The notes under the pieces: generated by a model
What the model was told of the DNA's origin: nothing
The model's database searches: none
The model's input: the letters and a program-made list of their open reading frames with translations, nothing else
Position numbers and translations under genes: made by a program
Part shown: in pieces, positions 2,407-17,992 of the stretch
How the letters are laid out: the number at the start of each line of letters is the position of its first letter
How positions within the stretch are numbered: position 1 is the first letter of the stretch
Source: Massilicoli timonensis
Lineage (GTDB): Bacteria > Bacillota_I > Bacilli_A > Erysipelotrichales > Erysipelotrichaceae
Assembly (NCBI RefSeq): GCF_900199515.1
Contig: NZ_LT963434.1
Span: 783,272-815,271, forward strand
Direction: 5' to 3'
DNA: 32,000 nt

Positions 2407-3744
2407 ATGAATGATTTTATCACAGATTTATTTAATATTGATAGAAAAAAGATTAAAAAAATGAATGTTGTTACTAGTAAGGATAAAACTGAGTTTCATA
2501 TCGTCTTAAACCACGATGGTGATTTATTTTGTCCTTTTTGTTATGGTGTCGTTCATGCCAATGGCTATTCGAAACCTAAAATAATCAATCACCCTAAACT
2601 AACAGATAGAAAAGCGGTAATTATCTTTTATAACCATCGTTATCAATGCAACGAATGCTTGCGTACTTTCTCTGGGAAAAATCCTTTCACTTTTTCTAAC
2701 TTTAGAAATTCTTATCTTTCTTTTGAAAACATTATGAAGCAGCTTTCTAATTTGAATTATTCATATAAAATGGTAGCTGAGCTGAACCATATCTCTCCTA
2801 CCCAAGTACAAAGATATTTTGATAGCTTCGTAAACATTCCTAGAATCACTCTACCTGAATCTATAGGGATTGATGAGATTCATTCAAAAATGGCAAAACG
2901 AAAAGATTCTGCTTATTTATGTGTGATGGTGGATAATAAGAAACGTTCTCTTTTTGAAATACTTCCATCTCGTTCTAAAGCAGAATTAAAACGTTATTTT
3001 GAAAAGATTCCTCAAATAGAACGGAACAACGTAAAATATGTAACCATTGATATGTGGTTTCCTTATAAAGAAGTAGCGAATAAGTATTTCCCTAACTGCA
3101 TTGTAGCTGTTGATCCATTTCATGTTGTCGAACATTTAATGACTAGTTTCCGCCGTATACGTCTTAATATCATGTATCAGGTAGAATATGGCAGTGATAG
3201 TTACTATTTACTCAAAACATGGAAAGACTTAATTGAAAAGAATGTTTTTCTCGATAATGAACCAGTCTACAATAATCGCTTCAAAATGAAACTAAACAAA
3301 AGACAGCTACTTGATTTAATTCTTGAGATTAGTGAAACATTGGCTTTAGGATATCACCTAAAAGAGATGTATTTAACCTTTAATAAAAATGCAACGGAAG
3401 AAAATTGTGAGGAATGGTTCAATTCTATTTTAGAAGCTTTTAAAAAATCAGGAATATCAGAGTTCCATGATTTTATTCAAACACTTGAAAACTGGAAACC
3501 AGAAATTCTTAATTCATTCAAAAGACCTTTTGATGAGCACAAACTAAGCAATGCACTCTGTGAAAATATCAATGGGCAAATTAGAACATATTTATCTGTA
3601 TCAAAAGGAGTATCTAATTTTATCCGTTTTAGAAAAAGATGTATTTTTGCTTTAAATCCAAAGGTTTTCTATTCAATTACAAATCAATTAAAATCTAATA
3701 AAGTTCAAGGCAAAAGAAGAGGCAAATATAATAAAAACAAATAA
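2407..3744 (+). CDS. ISL3-family DDE transposase
   Basis: 445 aa. N-terminal zinc finger (CPFCYG ... YQCNECLRTF). DDE_Tnp_ISL3-like core: IGIDEIHS, YLCVMVD, VTIDMWFPYKEVANKYFPNCIVAVDPFHVVEHL, SNALCENINGQIR. SD GAAGGAGG lies upstream of the ATG. Confidence 0.9.
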   Translation: MNDFITDLFNIDRKKIKKMNVVTSKDKTEFHIVLNHDGDLFCPFCYGVVHANGYSKPKIINHPKLTDRKAVIIFYNHRYQCNECLRTFSGKNPFTFSNFRNSYLSFENIMKQLSNLNYSYKMVAELNHISPTQVQRYFDSFVNIPRITLPESIGIDEIHSKMAKRKDSAYLCVMVDNKKRSLFEILPSRSKAELKRYFEKIPQIERNNVKYVTIDMWFPYKEVANKYFPNCIVAVDPFHVVEHLMTSFRRIRLNIMYQVEYGSDSYYLLKTWKDLIEKNVFLDNEPVYNNRFKMKLNKRQLLDLILEISETLALGYHLKEMYLTFNKNATEENCEEWFNSILEAFKKSGISEFHDFIQTLENWKPEILNSFKRPFDEHKLSNALCENINGQIRTYLSVSKGVSNFIRFRKRCIFALNPKVFYSITNQLKSNKVQGKRRGKYNKNK

Positions 3745-6400: not shown

Positions 6401-7290
6401 GCTTTCACTCCCTTATCGACATATTTGCGATCCATGATCTTTTTCAGATAAGCGCCGTACTGGTTTTTCTTATAGATCTCATAGGTTTCTTCTAATTGCT
6501 TCAAATCGATCCAGCCGTTGTCAAAGGCAATTTCTTCTAAGCAGGCGATCTTGCGGTGCTGATGCTCTTCGATCGTCTTTACAAAATTGGTGGCATCTAC
6601 CAATGATTCATGTGTACCGGTGTCTAACCAAGTAAAGCCATCACCTAGCAGTGTTACATCTAAAGCGCCGGTTTCTAAATAGATGCGGTTTAGATCGGTG
6701 ATCTCCAATTCACCGCGTGCGCTCGGCTTTAAGTTTTTCGCATATTCCACTACTTTGTTATCATAGAAATATAAGCCCGTTACCGCATAGTTTGATTTCG
6801 GGTTCACCGGTTTTTCCTCTAAGGAAACCGCTTTGCCGTTTTCATCGAATTCCACGACGCCGAAGCGTTCCGGATCTTCTACATAGTAGCCGAAAACCGT
6901 TGCGCCGCTTTGTTTAGATGCGGCTGCGCGCAGACGTTTGGTAAGTCCGTGCCCATGGAAAATGTTATCACCTAAGATCATCGCGCAGCTGTCGCTTCCG
7001 ATAAAATCGGCGCCGAGGATGAAAGCCTGTGCCAAGCCATCCGGTGAAGGCTGAACGACATATTGCAGTTCTACGCCGAACTGGTGTCCATCGCCTAGTA
7101 ATTCCCGAAAGCGCGGCGTATCATCCGGAGTAGAGATGATCAAGATCTCACGGATGCCGGCGCTCATTAAAATGCTCATTGGATAATAAATCATCGGTTT
7201 GTCGTAAATCGGCAGCAGCTGTTTGCTTGTTACTTTGGTTAGTGGATATAAGCGGGTTCCACTGCCGCCTGCTAATATGATTCCTTTCAT
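6397..7290 (-). CDS. rmlA: Glucose-1-phosphate thymidylyltransferase
   Basis: [75 protein letters not shown] lies 7 nt upstream. Confidence 0.95.
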
Positions 7291-7315
7291 ATCAGTACCT
7301 CCTGTATACGGATAA

Positions 7316-7346
7316 AGAATAAACCATGACGTTACGTCATGGTCAA
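7316..7346 (-). promoter_or_regulatory. Candidate rmlA promoter with a 19-bp spacer filled by a 21-bp perfect palindrome (MerR-type operator geometry), or alternatively a terminator hairpin of the upstream module
   Basis: Minus strand reads TTGACC (7346-7341), a 19-nt spacer, TATTCT (7321-7316), then 25 nt to the rmlA ATG. The palindrome ACCATGACGT-A-ACGTCATGGT spans 7343-7323. It overlaps the last 3 nt of the -35 and ends 2 nt before the -10. Confidence 0.4.
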
Positions 7347-7403
7347 GTGATAAATAAAGAAAAGATCAGTTTGCTTCCAAATCACTTCTTTTTTATAAGA
7401 ATG

Positions 7404-8039
7404 TTACTCTAATAAATCCTCCATAGAGCAATGCAGCCGATTGGCAAGTGCGTAAACCGTGATCGCTGAAGCTTTTTTTATATCCTTTGCCCCTTGCTCA
7501 TACTGCTGGATCATTCTAAGGGCAACACCTGTCTGCTCTGCCAATTCTTTTTGCGTGTATCCCTGCAACAACCGATATTTCTGTAACTTTGATCGATGCG
7601 GTTGGCGGCTGATGCGTTTTTCCATGACGTCCGTAAATTTATGAACCGACGCTTCATGCAGAGAACTGTATAAATTGATCAGATCTGTTACTGTAATATA
7701 ATAAGACAACTGCTTGAAAGTCATACCGGAATACCACTGATAATATGCTAAAATCCAGCCGCACCAATATGCTTCTGCATAATCATAAAACACTTCCCGC
7801 TTTTTTTCATGATGCACTAATCCGCATTCGGAAAGCAGTTCTAAGACCAATTCCGCTCCTGTTCGTCCTGCTACATATTTAGGATTGCCCTTTTCAAACT
7901 GTTTGCCGACATGTGAAACAAAAAGCATGGCATAAAAATCAGATAATGCAATATCACATGTATTTTGTGCATATTCAAAAGCTTCTCCTAAAATACACAT
8001 CGCATCGTGCACATAACTTTCATCGTAAGCGTGGATCAT
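7404..8039 (-). CDS. XRE-family HTH protein with an N-terminal ~145-aa W/Y-rich domain (DUF3791-like from memory), putative antitoxin/repressor partner
   Basis: The C-terminus LQKYRLLQGYTQKELAEQTGVALRMIQQYEQGAKDIKKASAITVYALANRLHCSMEDLL is a classic Cro/C1-type HTH. The N-terminal domain has YWCGWILAYYQWYSG and LYSSLHEASVHKF. Strong SD AGAGGAGGT lies 8 nt upstream. The gene overlaps the preceding one by 20 nt. Confidence 0.75.
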   Translation of the reverse strand: MIHAYDESYVHDAMCILGEAFEYAQNTCDIALSDFYAMLFVSHVGKQFEKGNPKYVAGRTGAELVLELLSECGLVHHEKKREVFYDYAEAYWCGWILAYYQWYSGMTFKQLSYYITVTDLINLYSSLHEASVHKFTDVMEKRISRQPHRSKLQKYRLLQGYTQKELAEQTGVALRMIQQYEQGAKDIKKASAITVYALANRLHCSMEDLLE

Positions 8040-8697
8040 TTGGCAGTACCTCCTCTTTGATCATATCTCTCATATACAGACCATCTATATCATCTTGCAA
8101 AATCACTTTTCTAAATGCAAGCCGCGCTTCTTGATCGCGCTTCATTCGCTTTGCATAATAGATCGATTCATCTACTGGATAAAAGGATACGAAGCAAAGA
8201 TGTTGAAATGCTTTTTGTGATTTCAAAACATATTGTTTGCCTAACTCCCCTAGTGCCATTGCATAGTTTAGTTGTTTTAATGAAATCTCATTACTTAAAA
8301 AAGAACGTACAAAACTAAAATAAGAATCGTCTGCGCGATACCCGATGATCATATCATATTCCGAAATATCGATTAAATAGTTTTTTCTCAACCATGCAGC
8401 ACCTTTTTCCATGATCGGTGTTCTTAAATCAACTTTGCGATGTTCCATCAGCAATGCAAGCCAGTGTAAAACGGTATATTCTGAACCGGATAAATCACAA
8501 ATATTTAAGTCATCTGTATCAATCTCATATTCATTCACATAACCATCTGTTCCTTCAGTACATGCCCATTCTTTTGCCAACTCCATGTATCTTGTGCAAT
8601 AAAATCCCTTGCCATAATCATTATAACTTTTCCCTTTTTCCAAAACTGGTTTCTGCGCGATTTCCGCAGACCCATGATAAAAAATTACTTTATTCAT
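8020..8697 (-). CDS. DUF3990-like protein with PARP/ADP-ribosyltransferase-like N-terminal motifs, putative toxin/effector
   Basis: 225 aa. VIFYHGS (aa 4-10), YGKGFYCT (28-35), VNEYEID (53-59), MIIGYRADDSYF (116-127). SD GGAGGAG lies upstream. The DUF3990 assignment is from memory of that family's conserved YHGS / GxGFY / ADD motifs. Confidence 0.65.
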   Translation of the reverse strand: MNKVIFYHGSAEIAQKPVLEKGKSYNDYGKGFYCTRYMELAKEWACTEGTDGYVNEYEIDTDDLNICDLSGSEYTVLHWLALLMEHRKVDLRTPIMEKGAAWLRKNYLIDISEYDMIIGYRADDSYFSFVRSFLSNEISLKQLNYAMALGELGKQYVLKSQKAFQHLCFVSFYPVDESIYYAKRMKRDQEARLAFRKVILQDDIDGLYMRDMIKEEVLPNDPRLR

Positions 8698-8739
8698 TGT
8701 CTCTCCTCCGTATATATTAATTGCTTCATTTGCATCTAT

Positions 8740-8768
8740 ATTATATCTCTATAGAGATATAATAGCAA
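8740..8768 (-). promoter_or_regulatory. Near-consensus promoter of the DUF3990-like/HTH pair, overlapped by a 22-bp perfect palindrome (candidate operator)
   Basis: Minus strand reads TTGCTA (8768-8763), 17 nt, TATAAT (8745-8740), 42 nt before the ATG. The palindrome TTATATCTCTA|TAGAGATATAA at 8741-8762 covers the spacer and 5 of the 6 nt of the -10. Confidence 0.6.
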
Positions 8769-8889
8769 TAAATCTGTCACTTTACTTCATTAAGAAAAAA
8801 GGATTGCTTCCTACCATTTATTTTTTCCAGCTGCACTGTTTTCGAACACACGTGTTTATCAAATGCCTTGTTTCCTAAGCCACATACGA

Positions 8890-8945
8890 AAATAACCCTA
8901 TATCGAAACATATCACAATGTATATGCCTAGACACAGGGTTATTT
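8890..8945 (-). terminator. Long-loop hairpin after the nucleotidyltransferase-kinase gene (weak terminator candidate)
   Basis: Minus strand reads AAATAACCCT (8945-8936), a 36-nt loop, then AGGGTTATTT (8899-8890), a perfect 10-bp stem with a short T run. The loop is far longer than in typical intrinsic terminators. Confidence 0.3.
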
Positions 8946-8970
8946 ACTTTATCATAAAGTCATACTATGT

Positions 8971-10725
8971 TTACAACAAATGATCTGCATATTTTTTCGC
9001 CATTTCATACCACTGGTACAGTGATTCTCCCATGATTGCACCGCAAGATTCCCGATACATTGCCCATACAAACCAATAATATGCAATGATTGCCGTATAT
9101 GCCATATAATGGAAACATCGCTGTTCATTGTAGTCTTCTTTCAGATAGGCACGAATAAATTGCTCTGCCTGATCAAACTCGTACATAGCATCGACGATAT
9201 AATAACCAATATCAATACCGGGATCAGAATATCCGGAATATTCCCAGTCAATTAAGATCACATCTTCATCTGCTTTGATCATCCAGTTAGGCCGATACGT
9301 ATCCCCATGACAAAAACACTTTTTCACTCCGTCCGCTTTTGTCATTTGATACAGCTTCCCAATCTTTTCTTTCAATGGATAAAAAGTGTGAAAGCAAGAA
9401 GGATCTTTTTTTACCAGCAGTTCTTCCATTGTCAACGCGTCTTCCCAAGGACGCATACCATAATCAACTGAAACCGGAATTGCGTGCAGCCGTCGCAGCA
9501 CTGCCAAAATTTTCTCAGTATCATCAAAGTTTTGATAGTCCGGTTCGCGAAAAGAAGGAATATAAATCGAGATCTTCCAGCCCTCGTTTATATCCATATA
9601 CACATAAGTCGGATCAAAGCCCCATTCTTTTGCGATTTCCAGCGAGCGTTTTTCATGACTTCGATTGATAATATTTTCTGTGCCATCACCGGGATGCCGA
9701 TAAATATAATCTACGCCATCTATTTGAAAGATGAAGGAAGTGTTGGTCATTCCTTCTTCAACCTTTCTAAAATGACAGATCTTAGCTTCTTCACAATGAA
9801 ACACCGACTGAATGTTACTGATGATCTTACTTTGGGTATGATGGATATACTGTTCATCAAATTTACGCAGTTCATCAAAATAATCAAACTCAAAGATAAC
9901 ATTCGCTGCATACTCTTTCAAATAAAACGGCGGCAGTTCCGGTAAATGATCCTTTACCAGCCATTCCCAAAACAAAGAATCATACATGCCGATGCTTCGA
10001 TCCGCTTCAGCAAGTTCAAGAAACTTAGACGCAAATGGCTTTTGCCAAAAGGCATGTCCCATTAAAATCAAGCCTTCGGCTTTCCCTTTCTTCATTTCCA
10101 CAATACGCATTTGTTCATCAGTTTCCACGTACATTTCATTTGTTCTATCCCGTACCGTCACTCCCGCATAAAATGACTGATATTCATACTGATGGAAAGG
10201 GTTATCCATGAAATAATTATCACAGGAACAAATATAGGTATTCTTCATTTCATTCCGTGCCAGATACAGACTTTCGATATTGTTTTTTATATTATAGGCC
10301 GCATTAAAAATGAATTTCACTTGATACTTCTCCTTTAAGTAAAAAAACATTTCCTTCTTATAGCCTAATACAACGGTAATATCTTTGATTCCGGCTTCCT
10401 GTAATTGTTCGATCTGCCGATCGATCAAGCGTTTTCCTTTTACTTCATATAAACCCTTCGGCTTTTCCAGCGATAAAGGGACAAATCTTGTAGAAGCACC
10501 GGCCGCCATAATAATGGCATTGTCTACCCGATAAGGCTCCAGCGCCTGTATTCCCGCAGCTGTGATCTTTCCGCTGTGACGATCAATATATCCTTTCCCA
10601 ACCAAACGTTCATAGGAAAGCGAATCTGAAAGTATTTGTGTCAAAGCCACTTCCGGCAATTCATTTTTTCTTTCGGTCCCTCTCTCATATAAATGATTCA
10701 AGATCGTAAACTCTGCTTTTGTCAT
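8971..10725 (-). CDS. Trifunctional-looking fusion: N-terminal winged-helix-like module, LicC-like sugar/alcohol-phosphate nucleotidyltransferase, and LicA-like choline/aminoalcohol kinase (APH fold)
   Basis: 584 aa. AIIMAAGASTRFVPLSLEKPKGL is the NTP-transferase G-loop, followed by ITVVLGYKKE. The C-terminal CFCHGDTYRPNWMI and VILIDWEYSGYSDPGIDIGYY form the kinase catalytic loop and DxD-type motif of choline/ethanolamine kinases. SD AGGAGA lies 6 nt upstream. Confidence 0.8.
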   Translation of the reverse strand: MTKAEFTILNHLYERGTERKNELPEVALTQILSDSLSYERLVGKGYIDRHSGKITAAGIQALEPYRVDNAIIMAAGASTRFVPLSLEKPKGLYEVKGKRLIDRQIEQLQEAGIKDITVVLGYKKEMFFYLKEKYQVKFIFNAAYNIKNNIESLYLARNEMKNTYICSCDNYFMDNPFHQYEYQSFYAGVTVRDRTNEMYVETDEQMRIVEMKKGKAEGLILMGHAFWQKPFASKFLELAEADRSIGMYDSLFWEWLVKDHLPELPPFYLKEYAANVIFEFDYFDELRKFDEQYIHHTQSKIISNIQSVFHCEEAKICHFRKVEEGMTNTSFIFQIDGVDYIYRHPGDGTENIINRSHEKRSLEIAKEWGFDPTYVYMDINEGWKISIYIPSFREPDYQNFDDTEKILAVLRRLHAIPVSVDYGMRPWEDALTMEELLVKKDPSCFHTFYPLKEKIGKLYQMTKADGVKKCFCHGDTYRPNWMIKADEDVILIDWEYSGYSDPGIDIGYYIVDAMYEFDQAEQFIRAYLKEDYNEQRCFHYMAYTAIIAYYWFVWAMYRESCGAIMGESLYQWYEMAKKYADHLL

Positions 10726-17631: not shown

Positions 17632-17645
17632 ATTCGCGTCTTCCT

Positions 17646-17987
17646 TTACTTATTCCTGTTTTTATATTCATGCAAACTTAGTTTCTGTATCAGTTCCTTG
17701 TTTCGCTCCTTTAATAAAGATATGGTAATAGACTGATAGAACAGCAATAAATATAAAAAGAAGATAAACAAGCACAAGATAAAGTTGCTCGGTGATTGAA
17801 ATCCCAAAAATTTTGAGATCCATGACGCAATTTTCGGAAAAATACTGAATACCAGTAACAGCAGCGCCCATAAGATCCACACAAGCGCATCATCAATATT
17901 CAGTTTATGCTTGCGAATCTTACTGACTACAAAAAGAAAGATAAAGAAACTCGCAATCAAGAAAAATAACTGTAAAGATGTTTTCAT
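17646..17987 (-). CDS. Small 3-4 TM membrane protein, DUF2304/GacJ-like partner of the adjacent GT2
   Basis: 113 aa. SKIRKHKLNIDDALVWILWALLLLVFSIFPKIASWISKFLGFQSPSNF, followed by a C-terminal amphipathic tail. It starts 5 nt downstream of the GT2 gene. SD AAGGTGAGG lies upstream. Confidence 0.65.
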   Translation of the reverse strand: MKTSLQLFFLIASFFIFLFVVSKIRKHKLNIDDALVWILWALLLLVFSIFPKIASWISKFLGFQSPSNFILCLFIFFLYLLLFYQSITISLLKERNKELIQKLSLHEYKNRNK

Positions 17988-17992
17988 GGCAT

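Follow-up and report, generated by a model that had tools for sequence, protein, structure and literature searches.

In the mqsRA and higBA toxin-antitoxin (TA) systems the toxin gene comes first, and the antitoxin binds the toxin through its N-terminal part and represses the operon through a helix-turn-helix (HTH) at its C-terminus. In the RES-Xre systems the toxin has the ADP-ribosyltransferase (ART) fold and consumes NAD+ or ADP-ribosylates, and its Xre antitoxin acts on palindromes to autoregulate the operon (PMC12204516). Tox-ART-HYD2 is a predicted toxin family of the H-Y-E clade with the signature H, D, GFY, W, R; it is located at RHS tips, is associated with immunity proteins and is spread over firmicutes, bacteroidetes, lentisphaerae, spirochaetes, actinobacteria and some eukaryotes (PMC3482391). 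PDC-M42, one of the 145 PADLOC phage defence candidates (PDC) nominated since instances are embedded in BREX, DISARM or type I restriction-modification (RM) systems, is a three-family cassette (FAM_00403>>FAM_03189>>FAM_00360) with 72 RefSeq occurrences, and its first family is common to PDC-M10 and PDC-M13 (Payne et al., bioRxiv 10.1101/2024.01.29.577857). Here we analyse two adjacent genes in a 32,000-nt stretch of DNA of the gut bacterium Massilicoli timonensis (Erysipelotrichales) (the window; feature coordinates count from its first letter), encoding a DUF3990 protein (protein 1) and its HTH-bearing partner (protein 2). The pair is a further member of the catalogued candidate family PDC-M42 and no new kind of system, and we regard it as rather probably an autonomous, mobile type II TA-like cassette, composed of an ART-fold toxin and an HTH antitoxin.

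The genes, their ribosome-binding sites and the two domains of protein 2 are as follows.

8020-8697, minus strand: gene of protein 1, 225 aa, DUF3990, predicted ART fold, putative toxin/effector (WP_102267661.1)
7404-8039, minus strand: gene of protein 2, 211 aa, N-terminal helical domain and XRE HTH (WP_102267660.1)
8705-8709, minus strand: Shine-Dalgarno sequence of protein 1, GGAGG, 7 nt ahead of the ATG (read from the sequence)
8049-8055, minus strand: Shine-Dalgarno sequence of protein 2, GAGGAGG, within the 3' end of gene 1 (read from the sequence)
7620-8039, minus strand: N-terminal domain of protein 2, about residues 1-140, all-helical, putatively toxin-binding/neutralising and possibly sensing (AlphaFold model, PDC-M42B)
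7413-7586, minus strand: XRE/Cro-C1 HTH of protein 2, residues 152-209 (Pfam HTH_3, 7.3e-11)

The two minus-strand open reading frames (ORFs), their 20-nt overlap in the ORF calls and the strong Shine-Dalgarno sequence of each stand as an earlier note, made on this DNA from the sequence, had described them.

Protein 1, taken in that note for a DUF3990-like protein, matches Pfam DUF3990 (PF13151) at E 5.4e-45 with 153.2 bits vs the cut-off of 32.2, its residues 5-168 covering profile positions 2-151 of 152, and it matches PADLOC PDC-M42A at 3.4e-44 over residues 1-202. DUF3990 is placed in the Pfam ART clan (PMC7955679). The structure prediction and Foldseek comparison that had been proposed gave a confident AlphaFold (AF2) model of protein 1 (pLDDT 89.5, pTM 0.85), in which the predicted fold is the split beta-sheet of ARTs. 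Foldseek matches in the PDB are weak (E 0.017-0.25, TM about 0.35) and nearly all are ARTs of the H-Y-E clade, with tankyrase 2, PARP1-4, cholix toxin, diphtheria toxin, SAIP and the RES-type TA toxin VPA0770 among them. Against the BFVD viral models we detected 3 matches at E<=1e-3, to an unnamed phage protein (E 9e-8, TM 0.55-0.60) and to two PolyVal ARTs (8e-4), and several PARP-like proteins rank next. The sequence-profile search of the PDB returned only marginal prion-protein matches (E>=0.016) and one match at E 1.2, which we reject as noise.

Conservation was analysed in 120 homologues at 60-66% identity and in 106 representatives at 36-50% identity. The motifs H8-G9-S10 and G29-x-G31-F32-Y33 are at least 90% conserved in both sets and fall on strands 3-10 and 32-35 predicted in the AF2 model, so that the HG[ST] His and the GxGxY/F aromatic that mark the H-Y-E clade are both found in protein 1. 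The conserved positions are H8, G9, S10, D27, G29, G31, F32, Y33, W44, Y57, R87, D115, G119, R121, A122 and D123; P17, D115 and D123 are invariant over the 106 sequences, and D27 is at least 90% conserved. The earlier note had pointed to the strings VIFYHGS, YGKGFYCT, VNEYEID and IIGYRADDSYF, the first three as counterparts of the PARP catalytic motifs. All four strings are present, and the His and Tyr motifs are conserved, but VNEYEID does not hold as the third motif: position 56, the proposed catalytic Glu of NEY, is K, Q, E, C or I at 60-66% identity, and E58 is below 90% in the wider family. The caveat given with that proposal, that the NEY match may be coincidental, was well placed, the conserved acids being D115, D123 and D27 instead.

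D115 is proposed as the likely catalytic acid, putatively equivalent by predicted topology to PARP1 E988, because it is invariant, stands directly ahead of the predicted strand 116-119, lies at PARP1-like spacing from the aromatic (82 residues from Y33 to D115; 81 from Y907 to E988 in PARP1) and is retained in the distant 159-aa homologue of the plasmid pBF9343, where D123 is Asn. The Tox-ART-HYD2 signature is present as H8, D27, G31-F32-Y33, W44 and R87, all at least 90% conserved. Since this signature and the phyletic spread fit, DUF3990 is probably Tox-ART-HYD2 (prototype gi 238064042), of the H-Y-D type, an assignment made from the signature and the phyla. DUF3990 has been described as the C-terminal toxin tip of type VI secretion (T6SS) Rhs effectors (PMC4524185; PMC10763514). 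The family comprises 2,213 clusters at 50% identity (E<=1e-3). One representative (P0347, 791 aa) is fused to a long Lys/Asn-rich C-terminal region, which by eye we take to resemble a TnpB/IS605 OrfB-type protein; this may be a gene-calling fusion.

In protein 2, the C-terminal Cro/C1 HTH expected from the earlier note was recovered by Pfam (HTH_3, E 7e-11), and in Foldseek it matches SinR, CapH, C.AhdI and P22 c2 with TM (target) of 0.8-0.9 and rmsd of about 1 A. The AF2 model of protein 2 (pLDDT 88.5) has an N-domain built of helices throughout (pLDDT about 90), which matches PADLOC PDC-M42B at 2.9e-9 over residues 3-131 and has no PDB match in Foldseek. Full-length relatives of protein 2 form more than 1,000 clusters at 90% identity. 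The likeness of the N-domain to DUF3791, suggested in the earlier note, was rejected: the Pfam search gives the N-domain no match at E<=1, a faint DUF3791 match appears in 6/120 family members (best E 0.027), and hhalign with the genuine DUF3791 protein of pBF9343 gives E 0.15 over 13 columns. MqsA models give weak HTH-level matches to the protein 2 family, far under the family cut-offs.

The linkage of the two proteins was analysed in 82 fetched loci (80 genome loci and 2 same-species metagenome contigs), from Clostridia, Bacilli, Lentisphaerae, Spirochaetes, Betaproteobacteria, Actinobacteria, Elusimicrobia and Bacteroidales. The protein 2-like N-domain is encoded directly 3' of the DUF3990 gene in 81/82 loci; the HTH was detected in 78, and of the remaining four loci three stop at a contig edge. 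The overlap of the two genes, usually of about 17-20 nt, is kept in most of the 80 genome loci. The genes are thus small, co-directional, coupled and strictly co-inherited in a unit of their own, as is the case for type II TA operons. Single-chain fusions of protein 1 and protein 2 were detected in 5 of 150 cluster representatives, in both orders, and such natural fusions indicate that the two proteins work together; P0245 and P0252 are not frameshift artefacts, because the first has the reverse order and the second a 45-aa linker. The flanking genes are mixed, with 135 Pfam families in 150 flanking proteins and none of them in more than 5; about half have the orientation of the pair, and the medians of the flanking gaps are 164 and 148 nt. 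Relatives were also found on 63 plasmid records and 6 phage-like faecal contigs.

The pair has promoter-like, operator-like and terminator-like sequences around it.

8740-8768, minus strand: sigma-70-type promoter-like site, -35 TTGCTA at 8763-8768, 17-nt spacer, -10 TATAAT at 8740-8745 (consensus scan, 10/12 positions)
8741-8762, strandless: candidate operator, a perfect 22-bp palindrome with the halves TTATATCTCTA and TAGAGATATAA, filling the -35/-10 spacer and overlapping the -10 hexamer
8890-8945 (approx.), minus strand: long, terminator-like hairpin after the stop codon of the LicC-like gene (RNA fold)
7322-7344, minus strand: hairpin 3' of the pair, GACCATGACGT-AAC-GTCATGGTT then UAUUCUUUAU, 10-bp stem and U-rich tail (terminator scan, fold z -2.9)

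The near-consensus promoter-like site of the pair (TTGCTA-17-TATAAT) and the hairpin-capable palindrome 3' of it were both correctly read in the earlier note; promoter-like sites over the whole region are not enriched (7 observed vs 9.9 expected). The 22-bp palindrome is present as 1 copy in the window, with 0 expected, and no second copy was found elsewhere in the 32 kb. Homologous pairs were scanned for a palindrome of the design TAY-N4, short spacer, reverse complement, with these results.

120 nt upstream of the DUF3990 gene: 57/79 loci (72%)
120 nt downstream of the partner gene: 6/76 loci (8%)
Control region 1.4 kb upstream: 3/66 loci (5%)
Shuffled upstream sequence: 10%

The commonest position in the homologous pairs is 40-44 nt ahead of the start codon, and the half-sites co-vary across lineages (TACTTCT/AGAAGTA, TATCTCT/AGAGATA, TATCACT/AGTGATA, TATCGCT/AGCGATA), which is how a dimeric HTH repressor and its own operator would be expected to co-evolve. 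The position of the palindrome at the promoter would likewise fit autorepression by protein 2. A DNA-binding antitoxin with an operator at the operon promoter, the further hallmark of type II TA systems, has its counterparts here in the HTH_3 domain and the candidate palindrome.

The RNA fold of 8860-8975 on the minus strand (116 nt) has -33.9 kcal/mol and z -3.9, with 0/200 shuffles as stable, and the hairpin at 8890-8945 would probably terminate transcription of the polysaccharide genes upstream and insulate the pair from them. On the other side, the putative terminator at 7322-7344 would end the transcription unit of the pair 60 nt past the stop codon. The pair is bracketed by hairpins on both sides, since the terminator-like hairpin at 8890-8945 is the second of its kind. 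The 3' palindrome, taken over 7322-7349 (ACCATGACGT-AAC-GTCATGGT), is confined to M. timonensis loci. It is flanked by a TTGACC hexamer and a TATTCT/TTTATT stretch, just ahead of rmlA, and it could serve both as the terminator of the pair and as a part of the rmlA promoter/operator.

The surroundings of the pair are a long cell-wall polysaccharide locus, in which the pair is placed between the LicC-like gene and rmlA, on the strand common to both. Upstream of it are genes for glycosyltransferases, an ABC exporter, a DUF6077 protein, LicD, a flippase, nucleotidyltransferases and a LicC/choline-kinase fusion; downstream are rmlA, rmlC, rmlB and rmlD, followed by an ISL3 transposase, a MerR-methyltransferase and WecG. 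The pair has 273 bp (8698-8970) and 113 bp (7291-7403) of non-coding DNA on its two sides, and the other genes of the locus are closely spaced apart from one 61-bp gap, both as the earlier note reported. We searched the 273-bp upstream gap for a hidden third gene and rejected it, the 52-aa ORF there and the small ORFs of other loci being mutually unrelated.

This position makes it necessary to weigh a contribution of the pair to the polysaccharide pathway, or regulation of that pathway, for instance the control of rmlACBD by protein 2. The pair shares its strand with the genes on both sides and is present at the same licC-rmlA junction in 13/13 same-species places, a comparison that covers only near-identical strains because the contigs were retrieved through identical flanking proteins, and the hairpin ahead of rmlA could overlap the rmlA promoter. 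The same hairpin, together with that at 8890-8945, sets terminator-like structures on both sides of the pair, and the operator palindrome is found within the 32 kb only at the promoter of the pair itself. Three sister genera with RmlA of the same 90%-identity cluster, CAG:536, Amedibacillus and Traorella, do not have the pair upstream of rmlA; another gene abuts rmlA there. The earlier note had held that invariable presence of the pair with polysaccharide genes in all relatives would argue for a biosynthetic role; this is not what we observe, because the rml loci of the sister genera are without the pair. The three neighbourhoods of homologous pairs that were inspected gene by gene are not polysaccharide loci, and the 25 commonest Pfam families in the census of 150 neighbours include no polysaccharide family. 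We therefore consider a role in the pathway very improbable; the cell-wall polysaccharide locus carries the pair as a passenger outside the pathway.

In a contig with the RmlA of Firmicutes bacterium CAG:536 (L096, 12601-13638), we observed an abortive-infection-type gene, Abi_2 (PF07751), inside the rml/polysaccharide locus; this related lineage, too, has a conflict-type gene in such a locus, one of an unrelated kind.

Cell-wall polysaccharide is a typical phage receptor in Gram-positive bacteria. Some homologous pairs adjoin type I RM genes and some a Gabija-like pair (OLD-TOPRIM/UvrD) accompanied by IS remnants, and PADLOC matches among the neighbours include PtuA, GajA, AbiLi and PDC-S01. 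Within the TA-type reading, a dedicated anti-phage (abortive infection) role would follow this pattern: the N-domain of protein 2, in the manner of TA defence proteins that are fused, would sense a phage product and release or activate the ART-fold effector, which would ADP-ribosylate nucleic acid or protein, or drain NAD+, stopping the infected cell. We consider this possible, at clearly less than an even chance. Both proteins match PDC-M42, the candidates of which were nominated from embedding in BREX, DISARM and type I RM systems, but all 145 are called 'untested' by their authors (bioRxiv 10.1101/2024.01.29.577857). The type I RM and Gabija-like neighbours and the PADLOC matches speak for a defensive function; against this, the defence neighbours are a minority in very mixed surroundings. 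The single-chain fusions are easier to reconcile with a sensor-effector than with a labile antitoxin, the host locus builds a cell-wall polysaccharide that is likely a phage receptor, and the Abi_2 gene of the related lineage is located in the equivalent locus.

For the TA-type cassette that we prefer, the following course of events is proposed. The cassette would have been acquired horizontally and fixed between the LicC-like gene and rmlA, taking no part in polysaccharide synthesis, and would be transcribed from its own promoter, with protein 2 made by coupled translation from the overlapping gene. The all-helical N-domain of protein 2 would keep protein 1 inactive, and the XRE HTH would bind as a dimer to the 22-bp palindrome overlapping the -10 and repress the operon. 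If protein 2 were lost or displaced, for instance in phage infection or once the cassette is lost, this would free protein 1, an enzyme of the H-Y-E clade that would most likely use NAD+, either ADP-ribosylating a macromolecule or destroying NAD+, and growth arrest would result. The core of the idea of an ART-like effector with a neutralising, autoregulating HTH partner was already in the earlier note and is backed by the ART clan, the model matches, the linkage, the fusions, the palindrome and the absence of the pair from the equivalent loci of the sister genera; its third motif, DUF3791 assignment and composition argument were not upheld.

Several points weigh against the TA-type cassette. 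The patch of the pair is AT-rich, as had been noted, with GC of 0.367 vs 0.410 for the window, but the difference is mild: 13% of same-size windows are equally or more AT-rich, and some other parts of the polysaccharide locus have lower GC. Base composition was therefore rejected as too weak a sign of foreign origin, and the pair is not clearly foreign. No integrase or repeat scars accompany the pair, but no search aimed at insertion scars was made, the loci of the sister genera being too differently arranged to place the insertion boundaries. The intact presence in 13/13 places looks like that of a fixed, possibly domesticated gene and not of a mobile one. The PDB matches of the fold include none at E<=0.001, and hhalign of the DUF3990 profile with the PARP1 catalytic domain sequence is not significant (E 0.16) and pairs motifs 1 and 2 only, with LWHGS and FGKGIYFA. 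With only a candidate for the catalytic acid, protein 1 could be inactive or have other chemistry. The fusions P0352 and P0375 could be frameshift artefacts at the overlap, and stable single-chain fusions do not fit a simple 'labile antitoxin' model. The searchable literature holds no experiments on any DUF3990 protein, and that the PDC authors describe their candidates as they do counts here as well.

Some of these observations would also be at home with a non-toxic ART-fold enzyme, such as an NAD+-dependent modifier or a repair-type transferase, accompanied by a dedicated transcription factor or regulatory subunit. The ART clan has non-toxic members such as Tpt1/PTS_2-RNA (PMC7955679), the RES-Xre relative GndRX is described as having a non-canonical activity (PMC12457610), every same-species place that was examined has the pair, fixed and intact, and stable fusions occur. 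Rhs effectors nevertheless carry DUF3990 as their toxin tip, immunity proteins are associated with the Tox-ART-HYD2 family, and a distribution of this kind, patchy, across phyla and adjacent to plasmids and defence genes, is what conflict systems typically have. We thus hold the non-toxic enzyme to be improbable and retain the type II TA-like cassette as the preferred explanation.

Other features of the locus were observed in the course of the analysis. The ISL3-family transposase gene (window 2407-3744, plus strand; DDE_Tnp_ISL3 E 3.8e-44), between rmlD and the MerR-methyltransferase gene in an AT-rich stretch (GC 0.31), is a strain-specific insertion, because it is missing in 12/12 same-species places whose sequence covers that region. 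The MerR-methyltransferase gene encodes 401 aa in the window and is called with 401-436 aa elsewhere. The 361-bp 'gap' at 17632-17992 on the minus strand, between the GT4 and GT2 genes, is no true intergenic gap because it contains a small DUF2304 gene, which encodes 113 aa in same-species contigs and falls below the 120-aa ORF filter used on the window. One metagenome scaffold (L081, 1-4640) is 99.9% identical to window 7128-9158; past 9158, G6PD, 6PGD, transporter and porin genes replace the remainder of the LicC-like gene, and this is either a recombination junction or an assembly chimera.

What is added here to the catalogued family is the candidate catalytic-residue set of H8, Y33, D27, D115 and D123 instead of E56, the conserved operator-like palindrome, the fusions, the defence and plasmid contexts and the passenger status in the polysaccharide locus. 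DUF3990 is an abundant ART-clan family in gut bacteria, with free-standing pairs, pairs on Bacteroides plasmids and Rhs toxin tips. For genome annotation, both genes should be treated as passengers of the polysaccharide locus and not as members of the pathway. If protein 1 were an NAD+-dependent toxin with a new target, the pairs would be a fourth ART-based TA/defence family beside DarTG, RES-Xre/ParST and CmdTAC. A broader and rather doubtful reading is that the DUF3990-HTH pairs could be a very large class of gut-microbiome immune/addiction modules, in which an H-Y-D ADP-ribosyltransferase would be restrained by a structurally new helical domain doubling as the sensor, with nucleic acid as a possible target, as for DarT and CmdT, and the M. 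timonensis copy would be a defence inside a likely phage-receptor locus. In this reading, Abi_2 in the equivalent locus of the other lineage would mark receptor loci as landing pads for abortive-infection genes.

Compared with the known systems, the pair is nearest by family to PDC-M42: the two proteins match the A and B component models in adjacent genes, and the DUF3990-first order is common to both. The statement of the earlier note that the pairing has no experimentally defined function still holds in the searchable literature, where PDC-M42 or PF13151 is not mentioned in paper texts; the pairing was, however, already catalogued as PADLOC PDC-M42. PDC-M42 has three families, whereas M. timonensis has two genes with the HTH fused to the B-type domain; no M42C model match was reported for the pair, there is no conserved third gene upstream, and the downstream neighbours are heterogeneous. 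The HTH of protein 2 may stand in for the third family, FAM_00360. PDC-M10 and PDC-M13 also contain DUF3990-type components.

Protein 1 shares with the Tox-ART-HYD2/DUF3990 domains of Rhs tips the conserved signature and the unusual phyla (lentisphaerae, spirochaetes), but those domains are secreted toxin tips with an immunity protein, whereas protein 1 is free-standing and cytoplasmic, with a C-terminal helical extension and an HTH-bearing partner. On the B. fragilis conjugative plasmid pBF9343 (NC_006873.1; L112, 2549-4609) a DUF3791 gene overlaps by 4 nt the short DUF3990 gene that follows it, and directly downstream of these come a small hypothetical gene and a gene of the zeta-toxin family, so that two TA-like modules adjoin. 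The plasmid DUF3990 belongs to the same toxin family as protein 1 (hhalign probability 99%, E 1e-18); unlike the M. timonensis pair, this DUF3990 protein is short (159 aa) and its partner comes first, is DUF3791 and is without HTH. The mqsRA/higBA layout named in the earlier note holds for the toxin-first order and the C-terminal HTH but not for the folds, the mqsRA/higBA toxins being RNases and protein 1 ART-fold, and the antitoxin N-domains being unrelated.

The closest characterised analogue of the pair is RES-Xre (P. putida Xre-RES, MbcTA, NatRT, ParST, VPA0770-VPA0769), and VPA0770 is among the structural matches of protein 1. Neither protein matches RES or DUF2384 in Pfam, and the likeness is at the ART-fold level only. 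The RES-Xre toxin is RES with R-E-S residues, whereas protein 1 is DUF3990 with H/Y/D; the gene order is reversed, with the toxin first in the M. timonensis pair; and the RES-Xre antitoxin has an N-terminal HTH and a C-terminal DUF2384, whereas protein 2 has an N-terminal putative binding domain and a C-terminal HTH. The pair would thus work like RES-Xre but is no member of it, because the toxin family, the gene order and the antitoxin domain order differ.

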